IMG/VR virus record: IMGVR_UViG_2531839523_000005
DNA: 37,471 nucleotides
Source: a virus
Lineage: Duplodnaviria; Heunggongvirae; Uroviricota; Caudoviricetes
Reading direction: 5' to 3' (one strand)
Shown: piece by piece, positions 1,173 through 37,471 of the stretch
Layout of the letters: every line of letters starts with the position of its first letter
Numbering within the stretch: position 1 is the stretch's first letter
Notes under the pieces: generated by a model
Told to the model about the DNA's origin: nothing
The model's database searches: none
What the model saw: only the letters and a program-made list of their open reading frames with translations
Position numbers and translations under genes: made by a program

Positions 1173-1745
1173 TTACATTTCAGGTTGCGTTATGACAGTC
1201 CCAACAGGGTGATAGCGGTAGATCGTTGACAGTCCAATATCATAGATAATTGCCAGCCGCTTTCTGTCATACCCTTTCTGGAGCAATCTTGCGATCTGCT
1301 CATGCTGCTCCTTCGTCAGTTTCGGGCGACGTCCTCCAACTCTTCCTTGTGCTCGCGCAGCAGCCAGTCCTGCCAGCGTGCGCTCAACTATCAGTTCACG
1401 CTCCATTTCTGCCAGTGCACCCATCATATGAAAAAAGAACCTTCCCATCGGAGTGCTGGTATCGATTGAATCCGTCAGACTGCGAAAATTGACACCTTTT
1501 GCGCGTAGCTCTTCTGTGAGAGCAATGAGGTGTTTCATTCTTCTACCCAACCGATCCAGCTTCCAGACCACCAATGTATCCCCTCTTTTAAGGCACTTTA
1601 AAGCGCGTTTCAGGCCTGGTCGTTCCGACTTGGTTCCGCTCATTTTGTCCTCAAAAATCTGTTCACATCCTGCGCACATTAATGCATTGCGTTGCAAATC
1701 TATGTTTTGGTCATTTGTTGACACACGTATGTAGCCAATCAGCAT
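1173..1745 (-). CDS. gin: Serine recombinase, Gin/Pin/Hin-family DNA invertase
   Basis: [49 protein letters not shown]…; true start taken as the internal Met at 1745 (RBS AAAGGGAG upstream); the longer track ORF 1173-1874 is an in-frame N-terminal extension. Confidence 0.9.
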
Positions 1746-1799
1746 TAAAAATACTCCCTTTTGAGTGGTTAAAGTACTGAGATAATGTGGGGAGGATTT

Positions 1800-1825
1800 G
1801 AGAGATAAACGTTGGTTTGGGGGAA
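1800..1825. other. Candidate gix-like crossover site at outer boundary of left inverted repeat
   Basis: CAGAGATAAACG-TT-GGTTTGGGGGAA resembles the AAACC-NN-GGTTT core of Gin/Hin recombination sites; inner half lies inside the inverted repeat. Confidence 0.4.
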
Positions 1826-2010
1826 GGCTCTGCATTGCCTGTTGGTGTACCGGTTCCATGGCCCACCGCCACACCGCCAGCAGGCTGGTTAAAGTGCGAC
1901 GGGCGCGCCTTTACAAAAGAACAATATCCTGTTCTGGCCAGAGTCTACCCGACCCTCCGTCTTCCCGATTTACGCGGTGAGTTTATCCGTGGATGGGACG
2001 ACGGGCGCAA
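1812..2010. repeat. Left arm of perfect 199-bp inverted repeat flanking the invertible tail-fiber segment
   Basis: 1812-2010 is the exact reverse complement of 3230-3428 (checked at both ends and in the middle). Confidence 0.85.
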
Positions 2011-2329
2011 AGTTGATACAGGACGTAAGTTGCTGTCCGCACAAGGGGCAACGCTGTTAAGAACAGCAATGCTGGATTATTATAACCAGGACACTACGGG
2101 AACCTCGGGGATAGTCGGCATGGGATTCAACAATGAAGATTCCATTACAGACCTTCGTGAGGGCAGCTTTAAAATGCCGGACGGGACAACATTCAGCGAT
2201 CCTGTCGTGGCAATGTCAGACAATGGTATGCAGGCTACTATTCTGACCTCTATCAGAAGCGGGTATGCGAAGGGTATCACTGTCAGACCCCGTAGCATTG
2301 CACTTAATTACATTGTGAGGGCAGTTTAA
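1817..2329 (+). CDS. Alternative tail-fiber C-terminal cassette (silent orientation); first ~65 codons lie in the inverted repeat
   Basis: Translation starts GEGSALPVGVPVPWPTATPPAGWLKCDGRAF… identical to the expressed fiber, then diverges; ends …RSIALNYIVRAV like the expressed cassette (…RNIAFNYIVRAA). No own ATG (track start is TTG inside the repeat). Confidence 0.7.
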   Translation: MGEGSALPVGVPVPWPTATPPAGWLKCDGRAFTKEQYPVLARVYPTLRLPDLRGEFIRGWDDGRKVDTGRKLLSAQGATLLRTAMLDYYNQDTTGTSGIVGMGFNNEDSITDLREGSFKMPDGTTFSDPVVAMSDNGMQATILTSIRSGYAKGITVRPRSIALNYIVRAV

Positions 2330-2943
2330 TGAGTAACACTGCAGTTCTGGATGAAAACGGTATCGCCACTGTAGCGGGCGATATCACTGTATATCACTAT
2401 GACGAGGAAACCCGGGAATACACCTCATCCTCTGTGGAGTATCTCGCCCTTGGGGTGGGTACTCCGGCACATTCGTGCGCCGATGCACCGCCGGAGGCAA
2501 TTTCGGGTTACGTGGTTTGCCGGACTGCCACGCTGAACGGGTGGGAGCATGTGCCTGATCACCGCGGCGAGACGGTATACAGCACGGAGAACGGTAACCC
2601 TGTTCTGATTACCCAACCGGGTGATTACCCGGCGGACACCACCACAAAACAGCCAGCCACGCCATGGGATACCTGGAACGGTGAGGCGTGGGTAACCGAT
2701 ACTGAACGGCAGCGAGCCGCAGAACTGGAGGTTGCCAGACAGCAACGCCAGCAACGGGTGAAACAGGCGATGGCGTCAGTCGATCTTATCAACCTCAAAC
2801 TGCGTGCTGGTCGCAGTCTGACACCAGAAGAAACGGCAAAACTGAACGCCGTGCTGGATTATATCGACGAGCTGAACGCACTGGATATCAGCACGGCACC
2901 TGAAATCAGCTGGCCGGAAGCGCCACTGGCACTTGCCAGTTGA
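2329..2943 (+). CDS. Tail fiber assembly protein (Mu U / Tfa-like), coupled to the silent cassette
   Basis: 204 aa; overlapping ATGA stop-start with upstream cassette; convergent with the expressed fiber gene. Confidence 0.75.
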   Translation: MSNTAVLDENGIATVAGDITVYHYDEETREYTSSSVEYLALGVGTPAHSCADAPPEAISGYVVCRTATLNGWEHVPDHRGETVYSTENGNPVLITQPGDYPADTTTKQPATPWDTWNGEAWVTDTERQRAAELEVARQQRQQRVKQAMASVDLINLKLRAGRSLTPEETAKLNAVLDYIDELNALDISTAPEISWPEAPLALAS

Positions 2944-2949
2944 ACGGTA

Positions 2950-4248
2950 TCACGCCGCCCTCACGATATAGTTAAACGCGATATTGCGGGGGCGGGTTAT
3001 GTTAAAGAATGCTCCGTTTAATTCGGCTTTTGCGCGACTGTTTGTTCCACCCAGAATTACGTACCACAAATAATCGCTACGGTAATTCCCCGCAAACACC
3101 TTATCGCCGCCATAGTCAATATTATTTCCGTTACTCATGTACGAGATATCAAGCGAAGAATCGTTATCGTCATGACCGCCGACCAGTGTACCTTTCTGCC
3201 ATGAAAGCAACTTACGCCCCTCGTCAATCTTGCGCCCGTCGTCCCATCCACGGATAAACTCACCGCGTAAATCGGGAAGACGGAGGGTCGGGTAGACTCT
3301 GGCCAGAACAGGATATTGTTCTTTTGTAAAGGCGCGCCCGTCGCACTTTAACCAGCCTGCTGGCGGTGTGGCGGTGGGCCATGGAACCGGTACACCAACA
3401 GGCAATGCAGAGCCTTCCCCCAAACCAAGGTAATTGAGGACATCTTTTATACTGCCCTTAGCGATAATAGCGCGACCAATAGCTGTAAGGGTTGCCAGCG
3501 CTGCGCGGTCTGCTCCGGTAAAATAAGGCAACCGATCTGCTGCAGTGGCAAGTCCTGCCAGAGCAGTGAGCGTGGCATCTGCCGGTTGTTTTCCGTTTGC
3601 CAGATCGTATGCAGCCTTGACCGCTTTCGGTGTGGCGGCCAGTATTTCAGACGTGCTGTTGATGGCACTGCTCAGTTGTACGGTGCCTTTTGCCGTCAGC
3701 GAGGCAGCAGGCACTCCCGTTATCTGACTCCACGGGTGAGTGTGGCTGACGGGCGCCTTGCCGGCTGCAAGGTCGTATGCAGCCTTGACCGCCTTCGGCG
3801 TGGCAGCCTCAGTTTCTGATTGACTGTCCGTGGCGCTGCTCAGTTGTACGGTGCCTTTTGCCGTCAGTGAAGCCGCAGGCACTCCCGTTATCTGACTCCA
3901 CGGGTGAGTGTGGCTGGCAGGCGCCTTGCCGGCTGCCAGGTCGTATGCAGCCTTGACCGCTTTTGGTGTGGCGGCCAGCGTTTCAGAGGTGCTGTTGGTG
4001 GCACTGCTCAGTTGGGTGAACCCCTTAGCTGTCAGTGTCGCGTCCGGGTGGTTACGGGAACGTACGTGTTCAGCCAGTGACTGTGCGGCTTCCTCCGTTT
4101 TCTTCTTCAGCCATTTCGTCCTGTTTGCCAGTTGCCGGGGGGCTCGATTTGATATCCCGTCTGCACCACCCAGAACCGGATCTGATGTCTCCAGTTGATA
4201 GATATTTTCTTCCCACTTTTCTGTTTCATTCAGGTTTCCCATAATCAA
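2950..4248 (-). CDS. Tail fiber protein (Mu S-like), currently expressed orientation
   Basis: 432 aa; three tandem copies of a ~56-aa PKAVKAAYDLAAGKAP…HTHPWSQITGVPA repeat; C-terminal part shared with and then divergent from the plus-strand cassette. Confidence 0.85.
   Translation of the reverse strand: MIMGNLNETEKWEENIYQLETSDPVLGGADGISNRAPRQLANRTKWLKKKTEEAAQSLAEHVRSRNHPDATLTAKGFTQLSSATNSTSETLAATPKAVKAAYDLAAGKAPASHTHPWSQITGVPAASLTAKGTVQLSSATDSQSETEAATPKAVKAAYDLAAGKAPVSHTHPWSQITGVPAASLTAKGTVQLSSAINSTSEILAATPKAVKAAYDLANGKQPADATLTALAGLATAADRLPYFTGADRAALATLTAIGRAIIAKGSIKDVLNYLGLGEGSALPVGVPVPWPTATPPAGWLKCDGRAFTKEQYPVLARVYPTLRLPDLRGEFIRGWDDGRKIDEGRKLLSWQKGTLVGGHDDNDSSLDISYMSNGNNIDYGGDKVFAGNYRSDYLWYVILGGTNSRAKAELNGAFFNITRPRNIAFNYIVRAA
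3230..3428. repeat. Right arm of perfect 199-bp inverted repeat
   Basis: Reverse complement of 1812-2010; lies inside the tail fiber coding sequence. Confidence 0.85.
3415..3440. other. Candidate gix-like crossover site at outer boundary of right inverted repeat
   Basis: Minus-strand reading CCTCAATTACC-TT-GGTTTGGGGGAA; same inner half as the left site. Confidence 0.35.
3545..4048. repeat. Three tandem 168-bp coding repeats inside the tail fiber gene
   Basis: GTCGTATGCAGCCTTGACCGC recurs at about 3604, 3772 and 3940 (period 168 bp). Confidence 0.8.
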
Positions 4249-26364: not shown

Positions 26365-27093
26365 ATGACGCAGACACTGAATCCGGTCATCACTGTCACC
26401 GTGTCCGGTCCTGTGGGCAGCGGTAAAAGTTACGTACTGGCGCGAATAGAGGAAGTGGTGAAACAGGAATTCGGAAACAGCGTCATTGTCGACGCCGCAG
26501 ACGTGGACGGTGAGCGCCGTATGAGTGGGGATGATCTGAGCACATGGCAGAAACCACGGGCTGGCACAGTGATCAGGCTGGAGGAATACACGGGACAGGG
26601 CCTGTTGTCATACGGCGAGGAGCGTATCTGTCGGACGAATGAGCTGCTGGATGTTATATGCCCCACGGGCCGGCAACCCTGGATACTGCCCGATGCACTG
26701 CATGCCACCATTGCGGCACTGATGACAGTTTACGATCAGGAGCTGCTCATGAAGGAGTTACGTAAACTCACTGGTCAGTCAACAGAATGTTGTTCGTCCC
26801 CGAAGTACGGCAAACAGGAACACATCCCGATTAACCAGCCTCCCCGGTTCTTCGACGAATACCTTCTGACACCGGAAAATAAAGCTGAGCATGAAGAGAT
26901 CAAAGCGGCGTTGTTCCGGGAAATCAGGAAGATTGCTGAAATGCAACTGGAGGGCGGGCTGGACAGAGTGATGGCGAGAGGAGAATGGGCATCGCTGTTT
27001 GAAAGAGTTTCCCCGGAATTACTTCCCCTCGCACTGGCTATCGGGATTATGCAGACAGCGGATAAACCTCACTTACGTTCATTAAACACGTAA
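26365..27093 (+). CDS. P-loop NTPase-like protein of unknown function
   Basis: Walker A VSGPVGSGKSYV near N-terminus; GAGGAG RBS; opposite strand to late operon. Confidence 0.6.
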   Translation: MTQTLNPVITVTVSGPVGSGKSYVLARIEEVVKQEFGNSVIVDAADVDGERRMSGDDLSTWQKPRAGTVIRLEEYTGQGLLSYGEERICRTNELLDVICPTGRQPWILPDALHATIAALMTVYDQELLMKELRKLTGQSTECCSSPKYGKQEHIPINQPPRFFDEYLLTPENKAEHEEIKAALFREIRKIAEMQLEGGLDRVMARGEWASLFERVSPELLPLALAIGIMQTADKPHLRSLNT

Positions 27094-27473
27094 CGCATAA
27101 TCCGGGATACGCATTCAGCGATGACTGCATTTTCACCGGTTTTTACTGCATCCAGAAGTGACTCTTTAAATGGTACGGGCCGGGGCTGCAGAAAGGTCGG
27201 CATGGCATTGAGCAGACAGAGCGTTTTTTCCGTGAGGACGACATCAGCCGCTCCCACAGCCAGCAACTGAGAGTAACGAATATAGCTGTTATCCCGAAGC
27301 CATATCAGCGTATCAATAAAACACCGGCACTTTTTCTGGTCGTGATCAACCTGGTCCGGGATATCGAAAAAACCAGAATAAATCAAAACCTGAGGTGCCG
27401 GATGCGTGTTCAGTAATCGGCAGAATATTTTGCCGGTGAGTACATAAAAATCATCATTTAAGGAGTGCATCAT
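27069..27473 (-). CDS. Hypothetical protein, head-to-head with 27472-27687
   Basis: 134 aa; 3' end overlaps P-loop gene by 25 nt. Confidence 0.4.
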   Translation of the reverse strand: MMHSLNDDFYVLTGKIFCRLLNTHPAPQVLIYSGFFDIPDQVDHDQKKCRCFIDTLIWLRDNSYIRYSQLLAVGAADVVLTEKTLCLLNAMPTFLQPRPVPFKESLLDAVKTGENAVIAECVSRIMRYVFNERK

Positions 27474-27772: not shown

Positions 27773-27877
27773 CATCGCCCCACAGGAATGCGCTGTGAGC
27801 CGACCAAGGTTCAGTCAGTCTCGCGAGACCTGACCAGACTGCCATATTTTTTAATAATTGTAAAAGGCTTACAGATT

Positions 27878-28642
27878 ATGAAAATGCAGACATTACCCAT
27901 CGTGCCGTGGATTGGTGGCAAACGCCGCCTTGCAAAACACATTCTGCCGCTGTTTCCGGCGCATGAATGTTATGTGGAGCCGTTTTGTGGGGCAGCAGCG
28001 CTCTATTTTCTTAAGACACCCGGCAAGATCGAAGTCATCAATGATATCAACGGTGAACTGGTGAATCTGTACCGGGTGGTAAAGCATCACCTGGAAGAAT
28101 TTGTCCGCCAGTTCAAATGGGCGCTGGTCAGCCGTCAGATCTACAAATGGCTGCAGATCACCCCGGAAGAAACACTGACGGATATCCAGCGTGCGGCACG
28201 GTTCTACTACCTTCAGAAGCAGGCGTTTGGCGGCAAGGTGGCAGAGCACAGCTTCGGTACCTCCACCACATCCCCGCCACGCTTCAACCTGCTACGTATT
28301 GAAGAAGAACTGTCAGCGGCACACCTGCGGCTTTCCAGAACAGTCATAGAACACATGGACTGGCAACAGTGCATTGAGCGTTATGATCGTCCGCACACGC
28401 TGTTCTACTGCGACCCACCGTACCTGGGTACGGAAGGCTATGGTGTGGATTTTCCTGAAGGGAACTACTCGCGGCTGGCAGAGCTGGCCCGGTGCATCAG
28501 AGGAAAAATGATAATTTCGGTGAACGACATCCCGCAGATGCGCGAGGTGTTCACTGGACTGAACATACAGACAGTGAATATCAACTACAGTCTGGCGGGT
28601 AAACCCACGCCGCGCCGTGAACTGCTAATCTGCAACTTCTGA
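27878..28642 (+). CDS. Dam-family N6-adenine DNA methyltransferase (orphan)
   Basis: VPWIGGKRRL, VEPFCGAAALYF, DINGELVNLYRVVK and YCDPPY motifs; start taken at MKMQTLP (27878), the track ORF begins at 27788. Confidence 0.9.
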   Translation: MKMQTLPIVPWIGGKRRLAKHILPLFPAHECYVEPFCGAAALYFLKTPGKIEVINDINGELVNLYRVVKHHLEEFVRQFKWALVSRQIYKWLQITPEETLTDIQRAARFYYLQKQAFGGKVAEHSFGTSTTSPPRFNLLRIEEELSAAHLRLSRTVIEHMDWQQCIERYDRPHTLFYCDPPYLGTEGYGVDFPEGNYSRLAELARCIRGKMIISVNDIPQMREVFTGLNIQTVNINYSLAGKPTPRRELLICNF

Positions 28643-28758: not shown

Positions 28759-29115
28759 TCAGCCTGCGATTTTTCCTGGTTTTGGCTGAGTATAGAATCG
28801 CCCAATCTCAAGAAATGAGCGTTGTTGGTCTGGTGTCATGTCGTCAAAAGTATCTATTAGTTTTTGTTTTTCTGGGGAAATTTGATTCTGGTTTCTAGTC
28901 ATACCATCTGTGCTCATTCCAGTGAGCAACCAATTTACATCAACATTAAACTCTTGATGCATCTTTAACAGAAACTCCCCTCCAGGCATCGCCTTTCCAT
29001 TTTCAATCTGACTGATACCACCATTAGAAATACCTAAACGAGCTGCAAATTCTCTCTGGTTCAACCCTGCTTTCTTCCTCACAGAAATAACGCGCTCTCC
29101 TATATCTTTGCTCAT
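28759..29115 (-). CDS. XRE-family HTH transcriptional repressor (phage repressor candidate)
   Basis: N-terminal HTH LNQREFAARLGISNGGISQIENGK; divergent from early operon. Confidence 0.8.
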   Translation of the reverse strand: MSKDIGERVISVRKKAGLNQREFAARLGISNGGISQIENGKAMPGGEFLLKMHQEFNVDVNWLLTGMSTDGMTRNQNQISPEKQKLIDTFDDMTPDQQRSFLEIGRFYTQPKPGKIAG

Positions 29116-29161
29116 AAAAGTGAATCTCTATCTTGATATGCTCATAATTATGAGCAATAAT
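29107..29161 (+). promoter_or_regulatory. Early promoter/operator region
   Basis: -35 TTGATA (29133-29138), 17-bp spacer, -10 AATAAT (29156-29161); perfect 16-bp palindrome GCTCATAATTATGAGC (29140-29155) in the spacer; half-site CTCATAA also at 29111-29117. Confidence 0.45.
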
Positions 29162-29208: not shown

Positions 29209-29397
29209 ATGACTGCAGAACAAGTCAAAGCTCTCTTCCGCCAGCGCGGGATCACTTTCACCCGCTGGGCAGAAGAAAACGGCTACAACCGCAATGAGGT
29301 ATACCGCGTTCTCAACGGGCAGACCAAAGCCCGTTACGGTAAATCCCATGAAATCGCCGTGAAGTTGGGACTGAAATCAACAGCTCAGGCGGCCTAA
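29209..29397 (+). CDS. Ner/Cro-like small DNA-binding protein, first gene of early operon
   Basis: 62 aa; pattern resembles Mu Ner; AAAGGAG RBS. Confidence 0.55.
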   Translation: MTAEQVKALFRQRGITFTRWAEENGYNRNEVYRVLNGQTKARYGKSHEIAVKLGLKSTAQAA

Positions 29398-29449
29398 ATA
29401 TTTTGAGTCTTTGTAAAAGGTTATCACATATCGCAAAAGAGGTATGCAG

Positions 29450-29758
29450 ATGAGTAAGACGAATGTTTCAAGCTCCGGCAGTCGCATCCTCCGGGTACTC
29501 AAAGCGCTGCGCGGTCATGCCCTGAACGGTATTTCTAACGGTGAACTGGCGACAGCACTGCACGAGTCACCGGCAAACATCAACCGGGCACTCAACACCC
29601 TCATTGAAGAAGGGCTGGCTCTGAAACTGGAGAACGGACGTTTTGCACCGGGCATCCAGTTACTGCAGATCGCCATGGCCCACAGTAACGAGATGGCACG
29701 TGCACAGGATCGTATTAACGAAATTAACCAACGTGTCATTTCAGGTAGTCGTTTGTAA
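29450..29758 (+). CDS. Hypothetical winged-helix-like protein
   Basis: Start taken at second Met (better RBS spacing); …ISNGELATALHESPANINRALNTLIEEGL…. Confidence 0.45.
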   Translation: MSKTNVSSSGSRILRVLKALRGHALNGISNGELATALHESPANINRALNTLIEEGLALKLENGRFAPGIQLLQIAMAHSNEMARAQDRINEINQRVISGSRL

Positions 29759-29768
29759 GGAGTAATCA

Positions 29769-30689
29769 ATGGGACGTACCAAATCACCGATTAACACTGA
29801 ACTGAACGCCGATGTACCGCTGTCGGATGATCTCAACGTCAGCCTGAATGCCATGACACAGCATCGCATGGAGATCATGCAGCAGTTTGGTGATGGACTG
29901 CCTTATGAACGTGAACGCATCGTTCACGAAGCACGTTTTTATATGGCGCAGAGTGCTGAATCTATGTTGGAAGCGGGTAAGCGGCTGATCATCTTAAAAG
30001 AAAATGAACCGCATGGTGATTTCACAAATATTCTGGAAAACGACCTCGGATTAGCACCACAGGTAGCTCGTCGCATGATGCAGGCCAGCGTGAAATTTCT
30101 CGGCAATGGAGATGAACAGCCAAAACGCTCAGCGCTGAGCGTTTTGGGAAAAACCAAGTTATATGAACTGATGGTTCTGGATGACGAAGAACTCGACGCA
30201 TTAGCTGATGGTGGAACCGTCGCCGGTGCAACGCTTGATGATATTGATCGCATGACCAGCCGCGAACTGAAGGCCGCCCTGCGTGAAGCGCGCGAAACCA
30301 ACGCAGCTCAGCAACAGGTGCTTGCCGGAAAGGACGAAAAAATCAACGAACTGGCCACAAAACTGGAGAAGAAATCGCGCCTGCAACCTCCGCCGCCAGA
30401 CGAAGAACTGAAAAAATTGCGGGCGGAAGTGACGGCATTAGCGGTTGAGGCCGAATCGGCTATCGCCGTCCGGCTGTCCAGTGTTTTTGAGACCCTGTGT
30501 GAATACTGCACCAAAAACATGATCGATACCCCCAGAGATTTCATGGCCGGTCTGGTCTGCCAGATTGAACGCAGTGTTCATGCATTACGTGAGACGTTTG
30601 ACCTTGAGGCCGCTCCATCGGGTAACGATGCCCCCGCCTGGCTGACCGAACCGGAACCTGAAATCAACCGACCGGAGGATATGCAGTAA
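29769..30689 (+). CDS. Hypothetical early protein with coiled-coil and Pro-rich linker
   Basis: 306 aa; TAAGGAG RBS. Confidence 0.55.
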   Translation: MGRTKSPINTELNADVPLSDDLNVSLNAMTQHRMEIMQQFGDGLPYERERIVHEARFYMAQSAESMLEAGKRLIILKENEPHGDFTNILENDLGLAPQVARRMMQASVKFLGNGDEQPKRSALSVLGKTKLYELMVLDDEELDALADGGTVAGATLDDIDRMTSRELKAALREARETNAAQQQVLAGKDEKINELATKLEKKSRLQPPPPDEELKKLRAEVTALAVEAESAIAVRLSSVFETLCEYCTKNMIDTPRDFMAGLVCQIERSVHALRETFDLEAAPSGNDAPAWLTEPEPEINRPEDMQ

Positions 30690-31006
30690 TGAATACGAAT
30701 AACACACAAAATACCCTGATGGACAGCCCGGAGGCACTGGGGCACGCACTGTGTAATCTGCTGCCGGAGATGGTGCAGGGTTTCCGCGTGGTGACCCCTT
30801 CCGGTGAAATCTGCGTACCCGCACAGGAGACGCACCCGTTTGTACTGACGATGGAGGTGATGCTGATGCAGCAGATAAGACGTCTGCAGAATCAGTCAGC
30901 ATTACGCCCGGTAGTTGCACCGCAACCGGTAAATACCGTGGTGAAAACCTGCGATGGCGAAACACTGTGCGACCTCGCCAGAAAAATTGCCGCCAGAATC
31001 GGATAA
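30689..31006 (+). CDS. Hypothetical early protein
   Basis: 105 aa; start overlaps upstream stop. Confidence 0.45.
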   Translation: MNTNNTQNTLMDSPEALGHALCNLLPEMVQGFRVVTPSGEICVPAQETHPFVLTMEVMLMQQIRRLQNQSALRPVVAPQPVNTVVKTCDGETLCDLARKIAARIG

Positions 31007-31021
31007 CAGGGAAGACAAGCT

Positions 31022-32791
31022 ATGACCCCGGCACTGACTGAAAAACTGGTTGAAACAGCCCGCGCGGCACGTGACGCGGGGCATGGTAAACGCGGTGCAA
31101 TATACGACGCTGCCTGTGCTGAACTTGGCATGTCCCGCGCCACTCTGCTGCGCAGGCTGAAGGAGGTATCTGTGACTGATAAACGCAAAAACCGCGCCGA
31201 TGCCGGGCGCAGCGCCCTGACCCGCGACGAAGCCGCGCTGATATCTGCCACACTGCGTGAGGCCACCCGCAAGAACGGTAAGCGTCTCTATTCCATCGCA
31301 GATGCAGTGGAAACCCTGCGGGCTAACGGCTTTATCACCGCAGGCAGAACAGATGAAACCACCGGTGAGTTTTTCCCGTTGTCTGAAGATGCCATCAGCC
31401 GTGCTCTGCGTAACTATGGCCTGCACCCGGAACAACTGGATGCCCCTGCACCACATACCGAAGTGGCCAGTCTGCATCCCAATCATGTCTGGCAGATTGA
31501 CGCCTCACTCTGCACGCTTTACTACCTGAGCAATGGACATAAAGGGCTGCAGGTGATGGACAGCGCGAAGTTCTACAAGAACAAGCCCGCTAACCTTGCC
31601 CGTATCGCCAGTGACCGCGTGTGGAGTTACGAGATTACCGACCATGCCAGCGGCTGGATTTACGTTGAGTATGTGACGGGCGCGGAATCAGGTGAGAACC
31701 TGTGTTCTGTGCTTATCAACGCCATGCAGGAGCGTGGCGGCGCAGACGTGCTGCACGGCGTGCCGAAAATACTCTATCTCGACCCCGGCTCGGCAAACAC
31801 CGCGGGTATGACGAAAAACATGTGCCGCTCACTGGGCATCGACCTGATAGCGCACAAGCCGCATAACGCCCGCGCCACCGGACAGGTGGAAAAGGCGCGT
31901 GACATTATCGAACGCAAGCTGGAGCCGGGTCTGAAGTTCCGGCCGGTTCACAGTCTGGAAGAACTCAACGCGCTGGCCGCGAAATGGCGCAGCCACTTTA
32001 ACGCCACGGCTGTTCACAGCCGCCACGGTAAAACCCGCACGGATATCTGGCTGAAGATTACTGCTGAGCAGCTGAAAAAAGCGCCTTCCGTTGAGGTATG
32101 TCGTGAACTGGCTGTGGCGGCACCAGAACTCCGCAAAGTCACGCCAAAACTTCGTGTCTCGTTCCGGGGCACTGAATTTGACGTATCAACGGTACCGGGC
32201 GTACTGGTTGGTGAAAAACTGATGATTACCCGTAACCCATGGCGCAGCGATGTGGCACAGGTGGTTCTGACCGGTGAGGACGGCCACGAGACGTTCTTCC
32301 TGGTCGAAGAGGTCAGAAAGAACAAGTTTGGCTTTGCTGAAGGCGCGGCGGTATTTGGCGAAAGTTACAAAGCCCTGCCGGAAACCCCGGCACAGATGGC
32401 GGCAAAAGAAACCGAAGCGCTGGTTACCGGTACAGACAACGCCGCAGATGCAGCCGCCGCACGCAAGGCGAAGGCGCTGCCGTTCGGCGGGCGGCTTGAC
32501 CCGTATAAACATATCGACGACACCACACTTCCGGCCTATATGCCGAAGCGTGGTCAGGCCTCTGACGTACGCGGGCCGCGCACTGAACAACGTCCCATGA
32601 CTCATGTGGAGGCCGCGAAAGCCCTGCGCGATAAGTTCAGCGCCGACGGCCTTACCTGGACGCCGGAACATTACCGCCAGTTAACGGCACAGTACCCGGA
32701 CGGCGTACCGGAAGCCGCACTGGATGAAGTCATGGCCACGCTGACCACACCGGCCCGCAGCAGTGTTATCAGCATTGTTAACGGCAACTGA
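31022..32791 (+). CDS. DDE transposase (MuA-like transposase A)
   Basis: 589 aa; N-terminal HTH, integrase-core-like HPNHVWQIDASLCTLYY … ILYLDPGSANTAG. Confidence 0.85.
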   Translation: MTPALTEKLVETARAARDAGHGKRGAIYDAACAELGMSRATLLRRLKEVSVTDKRKNRADAGRSALTRDEAALISATLREATRKNGKRLYSIADAVETLRANGFITAGRTDETTGEFFPLSEDAISRALRNYGLHPEQLDAPAPHTEVASLHPNHVWQIDASLCTLYYLSNGHKGLQVMDSAKFYKNKPANLARIASDRVWSYEITDHASGWIYVEYVTGAESGENLCSVLINAMQERGGADVLHGVPKILYLDPGSANTAGMTKNMCRSLGIDLIAHKPHNARATGQVEKARDIIERKLEPGLKFRPVHSLEELNALAAKWRSHFNATAVHSRHGKTRTDIWLKITAEQLKKAPSVEVCRELAVAAPELRKVTPKLRVSFRGTEFDVSTVPGVLVGEKLMITRNPWRSDVAQVVLTGEDGHETFFLVEEVRKNKFGFAEGAAVFGESYKALPETPAQMAAKETEALVTGTDNAADAAAARKAKALPFGGRLDPYKHIDDTTLPAYMPKRGQASDVRGPRTEQRPMTHVEAAKALRDKFSADGLTWTPEHYRQLTAQYPDGVPEAALDEVMATLTTPARSSVISIVNGN

Positions 32792-32801
32792 GGAGGGAAA
32801 C

Positions 32802-33968
32802 ATGCTGGTACTGAAGCAGCAACTGAAAGAGGCCCGTATTCCACAGGCGGTGGTGGCGAGAGCTGTCGATGTTTCTGAGGCCACGCTGGCCCAGATTGTG
32901 AATCATAACGCGTGGCCCCGCACCAGCCCCGGAGAAGTGCGCCGGCGTCTTGCGTCCTGGCTGGAAAGTCAGGGGATTGATACAACGAAGAGTTTTGATG
33001 CTGTACAGGGCGCGGCCACGCCCCGTACAGCGGGTACCACAGATAAAACGAGCCTCAGTGAGGAAGAGAATATGTTACTCAAAAAACAGGTGTTATTTCC
33101 AGCAACCAAAAAAGCGTTTGGTCTTTTCCGTGACCCGTTCGCCGACGAAGCCATGCAGGGTTCTGATGATGTGTTCACCACCCCGGATATTCGCTACGTG
33201 CGTGAGGCGTTGTACCAGACAGCCCGTCATGGTGGGTTTATGGCCGTCATCGGTGAGTCCGGTGCGGGTAAATCCACGCTGCGCCGCGACCTGACTGAAC
33301 GTATCAACCGCGAGAATGCGCCGGTAATTGTTATCGAGCCATACATCATCGCTATGGAAGACAACGATGTGAAAGGGAAAACCCTGAAGGCAGCAGCGAT
33401 TGCCGAAGCCATTATCAGTACCATCGCACCACTGGAAAGCATCAGACGCAGTCAGGACGCCCGCTTTCGCCAGTTGCATCGCGTCCTGAAAGACAGCAGC
33501 CAGGCGGGGTTCAGCCACGTTCTGGTGATTGAGGAGGCCCACAGTCTGCCCATTCCGACACTGAAACACCTCAAACGCTTTTTTGAGCTGGAGTCCGGTT
33601 TCAAAAAACTGCTGTCCATCGTGCTGATTGGCCAGCCGGAACTGGCGACAAAACTGTCTGAACGCAATATGGAAGTCCGTGAAGTCGTTCAGCGCTGTGA
33701 GGTGGTCGAACTTCTGCCTCTGGACAATAACCTTGAAGAGTTTCTGACGTTCAAACTGCAACGGGCCGGTAAACAACTGACGGACATTATGGACGCCAGC
33801 GCAGTGGATGCCATACGTGCCCGCCTGAGCAATCCGGGAAGTCATCGTAAAAATATGGTCAGCCTGCTGTATCCGCTGGCCGTCAGTAACCTGGTAATAG
33901 CCGCCATGAATCTGGCCGCTGAAATCGGGGTTCCACAGGTCAACGCTGACGTTGTCAAAGGGGTTTAA
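32802..33968 (+). CDS. AAA+ ATPase transposition protein B-like
   Basis: Walker A GESGAGKST; N-terminal HTH; AGGAGGG RBS; follows transposase. Confidence 0.8.
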   Translation: MLVLKQQLKEARIPQAVVARAVDVSEATLAQIVNHNAWPRTSPGEVRRRLASWLESQGIDTTKSFDAVQGAATPRTAGTTDKTSLSEEENMLLKKQVLFPATKKAFGLFRDPFADEAMQGSDDVFTTPDIRYVREALYQTARHGGFMAVIGESGAGKSTLRRDLTERINRENAPVIVIEPYIIAMEDNDVKGKTLKAAAIAEAIISTIAPLESIRRSQDARFRQLHRVLKDSSQAGFSHVLVIEEAHSLPIPTLKHLKRFFELESGFKKLLSIVLIGQPELATKLSERNMEVREVVQRCEVVELLPLDNNLEEFLTFKLQRAGKQLTDIMDASAVDAIRARLSNPGSHRKNMVSLLYPLAVSNLVIAAMNLAAEIGVPQVNADVVKGV

Positions 33969-36802: not shown

Positions 36803-36998
36803 AACCATTGTCTGTTTTCTTTTCTGGTATATGTACGCAGGATCATGCAGCGCAAGACTTCATCGTTCCCTGGGCTATGGCAGGCACTACGACACCGCGC
36901 ATTACATCCTGTACATGACCGCCGTCATGTTGTTCTGGCCAGTCACCCTGCCAGCTGCAACCGACATTGTTGCCGACAGACTGAAAAAAAGGAGATGA
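36792..36998 (+). CDS. Small membrane protein
   Basis: Start at MTTETIVCF (36792), GGGGAGG RBS. Confidence 0.4.
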   Translation: MTTETIVCFLFWYMYAGSCSARLHRSLGYGRHYDTAHYILYMTAVMLFWPVTLPAATDIVADRLKKRR

Positions 36999-36999
36999 T

Positions 37000-37177
37000 A
37001 TGCAGAAAAAACGCCTGATACAGCTTATCCATATTGCCCGTAATGAACTGGGTATGGATGAAGACACCTACCGCCAGATGTTACAGGGGCTGACCGGTAA
37101 AGCCTCAACCAAAGGAATGGATACCACACAACTAAACTGCGTGCGTAAGCGTCGTCTCAGCACCGTCTGGCAGATCC
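37000..37177 (+). pseudogene. GemA-like (Mu gp16 / DUF1018-like) gene, interrupted by IS insertion
   Basis: N-terminus …LIQLIHIARNELGMDEDTYRQMLQGLTGKASTKGM… fits the GemA pattern; reading frame runs into the IS terminus and stops after 65 codons. Confidence 0.5.
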
Positions 37178-37471
37178 TGAAATTCCTGAGAGAATAGTGG
37201 ACACCAAATATGGTGGACGCTATTCATGAAATCATTAACCGCAGTGCGTAAAAAAAGCCCTAATTATCCCGTTGAGTTCAAAATCAAAATGGTGGAACTC
37301 TCGCATCGACCAGAGATCTCCGTAGCGCAACTCGCTCGTGAGCATGGGATCAACGATAATTTGCTGTTCAAGTGGCGCCAGTACTGGCGCGAAGGAAAAC
37401 TACGTCCTCCTTCAACAACAGAAAACAACGTGCCTGAGCTGCTCCCGATAACACTTGATGCCGAAGATGTT
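37178..37471 (+). mobile_element. IS3-family insertion sequence, left end (continues beyond window)
   Basis: Terminus TGAAATTCCTGAGAGAATAGTGGACACC resembles the IS3 left inverted repeat (AATAGTGGACAC core) as recalled. Confidence 0.6.
37226..37471 (+). CDS. IS3-family transposase OrfA (HTH), 3' end beyond window
   Basis: MKSLTAVRKKSPNYPVEFKIKMVELSHRPEISVAQLAREHGINDNLLFKWRQYW…. Confidence 0.65.
   Translation, partial: MKSLTAVRKKSPNYPVEFKIKMVELSHRPEISVAQLAREHGINDNLLFKWRQYWREGKLRPPSTTENNVPELLPITLDAEDV

Follow-up and report, generated by a model that had tools for sequence, protein, structure and literature searches.

The window analysed here is the complete 37,471-nucleotide virus record IMGVR_UViG_2531839523_000005 of IMG/VR, and this work focused on three open reading frames of its plus strand (ORF1, ORF2 and ORF3), which lie between the gene of a small Ner-like regulator and the transposase gene. 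An initial annotation had pointed out these three ORFs, given their sizes as 103, 306 and 105 aa, and noted good ribosome-binding sites and a stop-start overlap. The last two sizes stand. The longest frame of ORF1 spans 29444-29758, and the ATG at 29450 is its likelier start (29450-29758, 102 aa), because GAGG (29439-29442) lies 7 nt upstream and because RefSeq and the alignment of homologues both use this start. ORF2 (29769-30689) has GGAG 6 nt upstream of its ATG, and ORF3 (30689-31006) is preceded by GGAGGA and overlaps the stop of ORF2 as TAATG, as had been described. The transposase gene starts at 31022, 15 nt after the ORF3 stop. Our comparisons make it very probable that ORF1 and ORF2 are a conserved core pair and ORF3 a piece of cargo, and they assign the pair to the transposition block rather than to the immunity module.

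All three ORFs are genuine coding genes and not chance reading frames, since they give end-to-end matches in PHROG, show purifying selection in their ratios of nonsynonymous to synonymous substitution (dN/dS), are annotated as the same three genes in RefSeq and GenBank, and are consistent with a published proteome. ORF1 matched phrog_1368 (5e-45), ORF2 phrog_1748 (1e-143) and ORF3 phrog_5446 (1e-73, residues 1-105). Measured against diverged relatives, dN/dS was 0.03-0.04 for ORF1, 0.10-0.19 for ORF2 and 0.44-0.52 for ORF3, as compared with 0.08-0.13 for the transposase TnpA (A) and 0.03-0.11 for the transposition ATPase TnpB (B); ORF1 and ORF2 are under strong purifying selection, much like A and B. 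In the proteome of an extended-spectrum beta-lactamase-producing E. coli, a helix-turn-helix (HTH) protein (QGA32871), a DUF3102 protein (QGA32870) and Gam (QGA32865) were detected and changed together (PMC9927464); matched by accession spacing alone, these fit the order winged helix-turn-helix (wHTH), DUF3102, ORF3, A, B, small ORF and Gam.

The suggestion that the three genes are co-expressed within the early operon agrees with the layout of the region. The Ner-like gene is the first of this operon, a consensus scan of the early region gave one good sigma-70-like promoter, upstream of it, and no convincing plus-strand terminator was found between it and the transposase gene. In the related phage Fc02, RNA sequencing shows a transcript, pE, that runs from ner on through the early genes, and its authors remarked that functions had been assigned to A, B, gemA and mor only (PMC9936078).

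The transposase of the window is 68% identical to TnpA of BcepMu and 56% identical to that of B3, and BLAST found no similarity to MuA. On this basis we classify the window as an E. coli transposable prophage of the BcepMu/B3 type, related to Tn552, and not as Mu-type in the narrow sense. Mu, in which ner is directly followed by A, had served as the yardstick by which genes in this interval seemed unusual; this comparison does not hold, as the true relatives all carry genes between ner and A, and D3112 carries three as well. Nor are the three genes one novel block. ORF1 and ORF2 correspond to the pair gp12/gp10 of BcepMu and ORF14/ORF13 of B3, ORF3 being a variable insertion; databases have contained the pair ever since the BcepMu and B3 sequences were determined, and the locus is ordinary for its phage type.

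Genes for a wHTH protein (~100 aa), a DUF3102 protein (~300 aa), TnpA and TnpB are contiguous in BcepMu, phiE255, B3, PM105, phiSHP3, Bise, KP12 and Mae-JY22. The window has the same four-gene order (wHTH, DUF3102-type, Tn552-type TnpA, AAA+ TnpB) all on a single strand and preceded by a divergent repressor/Ner switch, and the insertion of ORF3 is its sole departure from this order. The constancy of this block was evaluated by two scans. In the first, seeded on DUF3102 with one genome per species and scored with custom hidden Markov models (HMMs), 74 loci were collected from Enterobacterales, Burkholderiales, Cellvibrionales, methanotrophs and metagenome-assembled genomes (MAGs) of Spirochaetia. 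The wHTH gene lay directly upstream in 70 of the 74 and the transposase gene directly downstream in 69, with a median gap of 3 nt between the DUF3102 gene and tnpA. The exceptions were mostly contig ends or decayed copies; two Spirochaetia loci had room for a wHTH gene and none that could be detected. Throughout these phage genera and bacterial classes the pair adjoins A and B and shows translational coupling. The second scan was seeded on the transposase in IMG/VR, which removes the circularity of seeding on DUF3102, and used those loci of the 80 closest of 576 relatives in which tnpA is preceded by 1.5 kb or more of sequence. Both genes were present in all 71 of these loci, a result that holds for transposases at least 58% identical to that of the window, since only the 80 closest were taken. 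The presence-absence comparison suggested with the initial annotation thus gave an invariant pair (70/74 and 71/71) and a variable ORF3, which was found in 410 E. coli genomes as against 644 with the early region.

The pair also diverges together with A and B. Pairwise distance matrices over 96 non-redundant loci correlated among wHTH, DUF3102, TnpA and TnpB with r = 0.68-0.93, the values for wHTH and DUF3102 against A and B specifically being 0.68-0.84, whereas Ner correlated with these four at r = 0.23-0.33 only. Among pairs of loci whose TnpA differed by less than 15%, Ner was an unrelated allele in 42%, and the divergence of wHTH never exceeded 26%. At the level of DNA, the repressor/Ner region of the window aligned no better than noise with those of two relatives, KP12 and the locus L088, while ORF1 through TnpB was 75-95% identical. 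These alignments place a recombination boundary between a swappable repressor/Ner module and the ORF1-ORF2 pair. Judged from the sequence comparisons, the pair belongs with A and B as a shared evolutionary unit, and not with the immunity module.

ORF1 had been described as winged-helix-like, and this description is borne out. It matched HTH_IclR (PF09339) with 26.0 bits (gathering cut-off 22), and a profile of 17 homologues searched against the PDB found the N-terminal domains of IclR proteins (TtgV, 2e-7; 3r4k, 1.6e-6; KdgR, 4.7e-6), followed by MarR proteins. The matches to IclR-family chains stop at about profile position 78-97, and a Pfam scan gave no match of ORF1 to the IclR effector-binding domain (PF01614). 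ORF1 is basic (pI 10.7), and its length of 102 aa compares with ~250 aa in the family. It shares the N-terminal winged-helix DNA-binding domain with IclR-family regulators such as TtgV (PDB 2xrn); these proteins have a C-terminal effector-binding domain, in place of which ORF1 is predicted to have a single C-terminal helix. We therefore describe it as a stand-alone winged helix of the IclR type, and it should not be filed as an IclR-family regulator, because the effector domain is lacking and only the DNA-binding domain is of that type.

ORF2 is acidic (pI 4.7) and matched DUF3102 (PF11300) with 27.0 bits (cut-off 24.4), its residues 65-173 falling on model positions 24-128/129; 31 of 36 homologues of its N-terminal domain matched DUF3102 as well. 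Its architecture comprises an N-terminal DUF3102 domain (~aa 36-176), a coiled coil and a helical C-terminal domain (~aa 165-295), the last of which is matched by phrog_4623 (aa 165-295). The DUF3102 region contains an HTH-like motif, HGDF...LGLAPQVARRMMQA, together with an acidic stretch of strong conservation, LDDIDRM-x-x-RELKAALRE (DDIDRMxxRELxxALRE). The coiled coil proposed earlier is plausible: the AlphaFold2 model consists of helices throughout, with long ones at 164-204 and 212-250, at low confidence (predicted local distance difference test, pLDDT, 48). The alignments used for modelling were shallow (73-100% identity for ORF2, 66-100% for ORF3), and a profile query for more diverse homologues returned the same close enterobacterial set. 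Remote homology and structure prediction, which had been put forward as a check, thus yielded an IclR-type wHTH for ORF1 and no fold or solved-structure match for the other two: in Foldseek comparisons of the ORF2 and ORF3 models no entry of the PDB or BFVD reached an E value below 0.1, and profile searches of PDB sequences with full-length ORF2, its N-terminal domain and the ORF3 family gave nothing significant, the best match of the ORF2 N-terminal domain being a Myb-like domain at E 1.3.

An exhaustive HMMER search with ORF2 gave 1585 clusters at 50% identity, mostly of ~300 aa. None of the 150 best representatives carried a domain fusion hinting at function; 8 of them were longer, with unannotated N-terminal extensions, some of them Cys-rich (CxxC...H motifs). 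Three DUF3102 homologues of 526-537 aa (P0270, P0274 and P0317) have an N-terminal extension of ~230 aa with repeated CxxCxH...C...C motifs; these Cys/His-rich extensions, which have no match in Pfam, look like zinc-binding modules. An apparent natural fusion of wHTH and DUF3102 (L081) was rejected as an over-extended ORF. In the literature searched we found no functional study of DUF3102, and BcepMu gp10 and gp12 appeared in similarity tables only, key comparative work on transposable phages lying outside the scope of that search.

One segment of ORF2, at 30000-30200 (~residues 78-145), is hypervariable and spans the HTH-like motif and the loop that follows it. It is 55-64% identical at the nucleotide level, as against 85-92% in its flanks, and Enterobacterales have at least three recurrent allelic forms of it, such as LGLAPQVARRMMQASVKFLGNGDE versus LSLSKRTAQVMMQASLKYLSPKLE. 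A link between these forms and the Ner/immunity type was considered and rejected, the two assorting independently. The segment may be a specificity determinant.

The two halves of ORF2 are found apart in other elements. Fc02 gp13 (324 aa) has the C-terminal domain only (HMM 2e-27, positions 165-280; BLAST to the KP12 homologue 2e-10) and is accompanied by a wHTH homologue, gp14 (4e-23), TnpA and TnpB; the same type occurs in Komp_PAO1_1 and about 35 other Pseudomonas phage records. The transposase occurs in 69 phage records; 32 of these give a match to the ORF2 type, and the full-length Fc02 type is present in 35. A divergent DUF3102 domain was considered for the N-terminal half of Fc02 gp13, where the motif can be aligned, and was rejected at a hhalign probability of 1.4%. 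KS10 gp15 has the N-terminal domain only (4e-16, residues 39-205); its gene directly precedes a Mu-type transposase gene (Mu-transpos_C domain), and there is no wHTH gene. Proteins of ~240-320 aa with DUF3102 only are also encoded on IncFIB/IncFIC plasmids with phage tail genes, where they head an operon with a Mor-family activator, and on Lactobacillus plasmids, where they adjoin a primase-type replication gene; neither plasmid context includes a transposase. We conclude from these architectures that the C-terminal domain tracks the wHTH protein and the Tn552-type A and B, and that the DUF3102 domain is a more general module of mobile elements. The proposal that ORF2 is an adaptor draws mainly on this difference in the partners kept by its two domains, and the architectures underlying it are few.

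The plasmid operon is exemplified by L172 (5899-7506) and L174 (5899-7680), from Enterobacter and Citrobacter IncFIB/IncFIC plasmids, in which genes for a 243-aa DUF3102 protein, a 95-aa ORF and the Mor-family activator are divergent from a small gene and near a tail tape-measure gene, a layout like that of a genetic switch. Three Arsenophonus and Symbiopectobacterium loci (L032, L047 and L050) have an additional DUF3102 gene, located on the other strand a short way upstream of the Ner and wHTH genes; it could be a paralogue or reflect two head-to-head prophages.

ORF3 behaves differently from the pair. About one third of the E. coli prophages are without it, and viral contigs with a transposase 97-98% identical to that of the window have a 3-nt gap in its place; compared with KP12, it is a clean insertion or deletion. 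It was absent from KP12, BcepMu, B3 and all 74 species loci, and a tblastn search of 50,697 phage records gave PhiKM as the sole match. A word-indexed search found 11 near-identical clusters, all from E. coli or Salmonella. Iteration over the ORFs of the fetched loci then revealed a family with a core of ~60 aa, corresponding to ORF3 residues 9-68, with the motif L.YAL.K.VP.M.RGF.I.T.YG.I.I.A.DA.PF...LL..KL and a helix / beta-hairpin / helix order; the last ~35 residues of ORF3 are lineage-specific. Members separate the DUF3102 gene from tnpA in E. coli, Salmonella, Xenorhabdus and one viral contig, and directly precede the wHTH gene in seven other loci. All ten aligned members matched phrog_5446 and nine of them phrog_27325. 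The dN/dS, near 0.5, is in keeping with an accessory gene whose constraint is weaker or shifting, and we regard ORF3, on its distribution and family, as a movable accessory gene of the catalogued, uncharacterised PHROG family 5446/27325. In other viral contigs the slot between the DUF3102 gene and tnpA is filled by unrelated small genes, a 99-aa ORF in L130 (4699-4998) and a basic 78-aa ORF in L133 (4768-5004), so that this junction is a recurrent insertion point for cargo. The L130 ORF ends in ITHWMLVPELPE, which we take to be a DUF551-like motif.

The remaining genes of the early region are as follows. A cI-type (HTH_3/XRE) prophage repressor is encoded on the minus strand at 28759-29115 (PF01381, 4.6e-15; phrog_8). 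The early-promoter-like site TTGATA-17-AATAAT lies at 29133-29161 on the plus strand, with 10 of 12 matches in the sigma-70-like scan and thus by consensus only, and is overlapped by a perfect palindrome, TGCTCATAATTATGAGCA (29140-29157), which is a candidate operator; no other candidate operator repeat was found, and the palindrome is inside the swappable region. The Ner-like small HTH protein, of the BcepMu gp16 family, is encoded at 29209-29397 on the plus strand (TIGR04111, 97 bits against a cut-off of 34; phrog_925, 4e-33). Downstream of ORF3 and on the same strand are transposase A (31022-32791; DDE/rve, Tn552-type of the BcepMu/B3 family; PF00665, phrog_310) and ATPase B (32802-33968, start as in RefSeq; AAA_22, ExeA-like; PF13401, 4e-20; phrog_296, 1.5e-93), followed by a small ORF and Gam, with GemA and Mor later in the same operon. 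The right edge of the window (36998-37471) falls within the GemA/Mor region, so the end of the prophage carrying the early operon is outside the window.

A 6.1-kb stretch of this early region is 99.3% identical to Escherichia phage PhiKM (Bcepmuvirus) and was found in 644 of 5426 complete E. coli genomes (~12%), at 712 places, all but one of them chromosomal and usually in one copy per genome; ST131-type clinical strains are among the carriers. Phages of the B3/BcepMu type are common prophages of Enterobacterales, Pseudomonas and Burkholderia. At the other side of the window, a host nucleoside hydrolase gene (IU_nuc_hydro, 326-1140) that lacks the first ~48 profile positions abuts the probable prophage end, where two exact repeats of GCGATAAATG (1106-1115 and 1129-1138), 23 bp apart, are candidate transposase-binding sites; the early region held no further copy. 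A Gin/Cin-like serine invertase (Resolvase + HTH_7) on the minus strand at 1173-1874 adjoins oppositely oriented genes for tail-fibre C-terminal and tail-fibre-assembly proteins, and the whole (1173-4248) looks like an invertible host-range segment comparable to the G region of Mu. Between the lysis genes and the repressor lies a Dam-type N6-adenine methyltransferase gene (MethyltransfD12, 27788-28642); a Pfam search gave no match for the nearby ORFs 26365-27093 and 27069-27473.

Taken as a whole, the explanation that we put forward, genuine co-transcribed early genes made up of a core pair that goes with A and B and of cargo ORF3, with roles assigned as below, has in our estimate an even chance of being right. 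In the proposed mechanism, ORF1 would bind a conserved site in the phage DNA and ORF2 would act as an adaptor or scaffold, its C-terminal domain contacting ORF1 or the A/B proteins and its DUF3102 domain contacting either DNA or some general partner. Acting jointly, the two would build or regulate the nucleoprotein complex of replicative transposition, and possibly replace in trans the enhancer-binding function held by the N-terminus of MuA. ORF3 would probably be directed at the host or at competing phages, by analogy with Gp05 of D3112. That ORF1 as a site-specific DNA-binding protein and ORF2 as an adaptor act with A and B in assembling or controlling this complex is a tentative proposal, to which we give appreciably less than even weight, and a purely transcriptional role of the pair is about as likely. 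A narrower form of it, in which the two are dedicated trans-acting assembly factors of Tn552-type phage transpososomes, ORF1 sitting at an enhancer-like or end-proximal site and the ORF2 C-terminal domain bridging to transposase or ATPase, is rather unlikely; if true, it would mean that the function of the MuA N-terminus is supplied in trans, leaving the immunity module freely exchangeable, and that these proteins are a new class of transposition accessory proteins.

Several points weigh against a role in transposition. The roles of the pair and of ORF3 are deduced from sequence and context. Adjacency and co-divergence could reflect linkage within one phage lineage together with selection for the swapping of immunity, and as both would give the same pattern, a shared unit is no proof of a shared mechanism. 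Tn552, Mu and D3112 are not known to use proteins of this kind in their transposition, and the pair can therefore not be needed for the chemistry of the process. The plasmid contexts of DUF3102 without a transposase suit a general regulatory or replication role equally well, and winged helices of the IclR and MarR types are usually plain transcription factors. ORF2 is acidic overall, its DNA binding being guessed from the HTH-like motif, and the poor structure predictions (pLDDT 48 and 58 for ORF2 and ORF3) lend no support at the level of the fold.

These points feed the principal alternative, in which ORF1 and ORF2 are ordinary early transcription regulators, acting on early or middle promoters or on the choice between lysis and lysogeny, and their place next to A and B is a conserved operon order. 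It would account for the IclR/MarR-type winged helix of ORF1, whose PHROG family is labelled 'transcriptional regulator', for the location of both genes near the 5' end of the early operon and for the DUF3102 proteins that head an operon with a Mor-family activator on plasmids without a transposase. It sits less well with the behaviour of the pair, which does not travel with the immunity/regulatory module while that module swaps independently, with a C-terminal domain of ORF2 that stays with the Tn552-type A/B set despite exchange of the N-terminal domain, and with KS10, where a DUF3102 relative directly precedes a transposase of a different family; moreover, the only candidate operator is the promoter palindrome, within the swappable region. 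We regard it as possible, while doubting it. The initial annotation had also named a way in which its reading would fail, namely that the three ORFs are accessory domains of the transposase split into separate genes. They might then be, for example, equivalents of the enhancer- and end-binding N-terminus of MuA. Domain I-alpha of MuA is a winged helix, the transposase of the window aligns to PHROG 310 from profile position 130 on only, and only ~150 residues lie ahead of its catalytic core. Yet the ORF1 profile compared with MuA residues 1-81, the enhancer-binding domain, reached a hhalign probability of 0.7%, ORF1 and ORF2 had no Pfam match to Mu DNA-binding domains at E up to 0.1, the transposase itself has no BLAST similarity to MuA, and no fusion of wHTH or DUF3102 with a transposase occurs among the 150 best family representatives, all of which makes such a split scarcely credible.

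Host takeover and anti-defence had been mentioned as further roles for the three genes. D3112 and DMS3 have small early genes at this place whose products act on host PilB or LasR, and ORF3 behaves as such cargo; it is the only one of the three for which this role is plausible. Extended to all three genes as morons heading the early operon, the idea is very unlikely: ORF1 and ORF2 are universal in the phage group, whose range extends from Enterobacterales to Spirochaetia MAGs, and their constraint is as strong as that of the transposase, which fits poorly with host-specific accessory genes. Matches in PADLOC-DB were limited to weak, uninformative ones for ORF1 at the level of the HTH (1.7e-5, CARF-associated HTH region) and one for ORF2 at 6e-3, with none for ORF3. 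ORF3 might instead be an antitoxin-like or DNA-binding protein with a Phd/YefM-like fold rather than a host-directed effector. The three best PDB matches of its model in Foldseek were YefM/RelJ antitoxins, and the predicted order of its secondary structure is compatible with that fold; these matches were not significant, however (E 0.64-1.3, TM-score at most 0.34, root-mean-square deviation 13-14 Å, model pLDDT 58). Pfam gave no match for ORF3 and only isolated ones at E 0.03 or weaker for other members of its family, the family profile found nothing below E 0.1 in the PDB and neither a Phd/YefM chain nor a Phd/YefM Pfam family, and no toxin-like partner gene is adjacent. An antitoxin of this kind is accordingly highly improbable.

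By analogy with Mu, transposition of B3/BcepMu-type phages is assumed to run on A and B alone. An invariant, co-diverging pair ahead of them suggests two more parts of the transposition machinery or of its control. If so, this would bear on replicative transposition outside the Mu paradigm and on mini-transposon tools derived from these phages; should the two proteins be plain regulators instead, the finding would be a routine one. With ORF3, the list of candidates for exclusion or anti-defence functions grows by a further small, movable early gene.

Compared with known systems, the locus is closest to BcepMu (NC_005882) and B3 (NC_006548), whose early regions were reportedly described by Summer and colleagues and by Braid and colleagues in 2004. 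Both have the same order of wHTH, DUF3102, Tn552-type transposase and AAA+ B (gp12-gp10-gp09-gp08 in BcepMu, ORF14-ORF11 in B3), and both share with the window an early operon that is inverted with respect to the late genes. ORF1 is 34% identical to BcepMu gp12 and 57% to B3 ORF14, and ORF2 is 39% identical to gp10 and 48% to ORF13. The systems differ in their insertions: in the E. coli lineage ORF3 separates the DUF3102 gene from the transposase gene, whereas in BcepMu the unrelated gp11 separates the wHTH gene from the DUF3102 gene. BcepMu and B3 also have, upstream of wHTH, a CII-like gene that the window lacks. KS10 gp15 and Fc02 gp13 (324-350 aa) are likewise encoded directly 5' of the transposase, each with one half of ORF2.

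The window shares with Mu the plan of a transposable phage: a divergent repressor with a Ner-type switch, then a DDE transposase and an ATPase, and later in the same operon Gam, GemA and Mor. Mu differs in that ner abuts A and that it has no relatives of ORF1, ORF2 or ORF3, and the repressor of the window is of the cI/XRE type. D3112 has three small genes, orf3-orf4-orf5, in the same interval between the Ner-like gene and A, together with a Mu-type transposase and no sequence relation to ORF1, ORF2 or ORF3. The last of these genes, orf5, encodes Gp05, presumably the protein known as Tip. D3112 Gp05 inactivates the pilus ATPase PilB, giving superinfection exclusion (PMC11436027). Located directly 5' of the transposase gene, orf5 provides a precedent for ORF3 in position, without homology.

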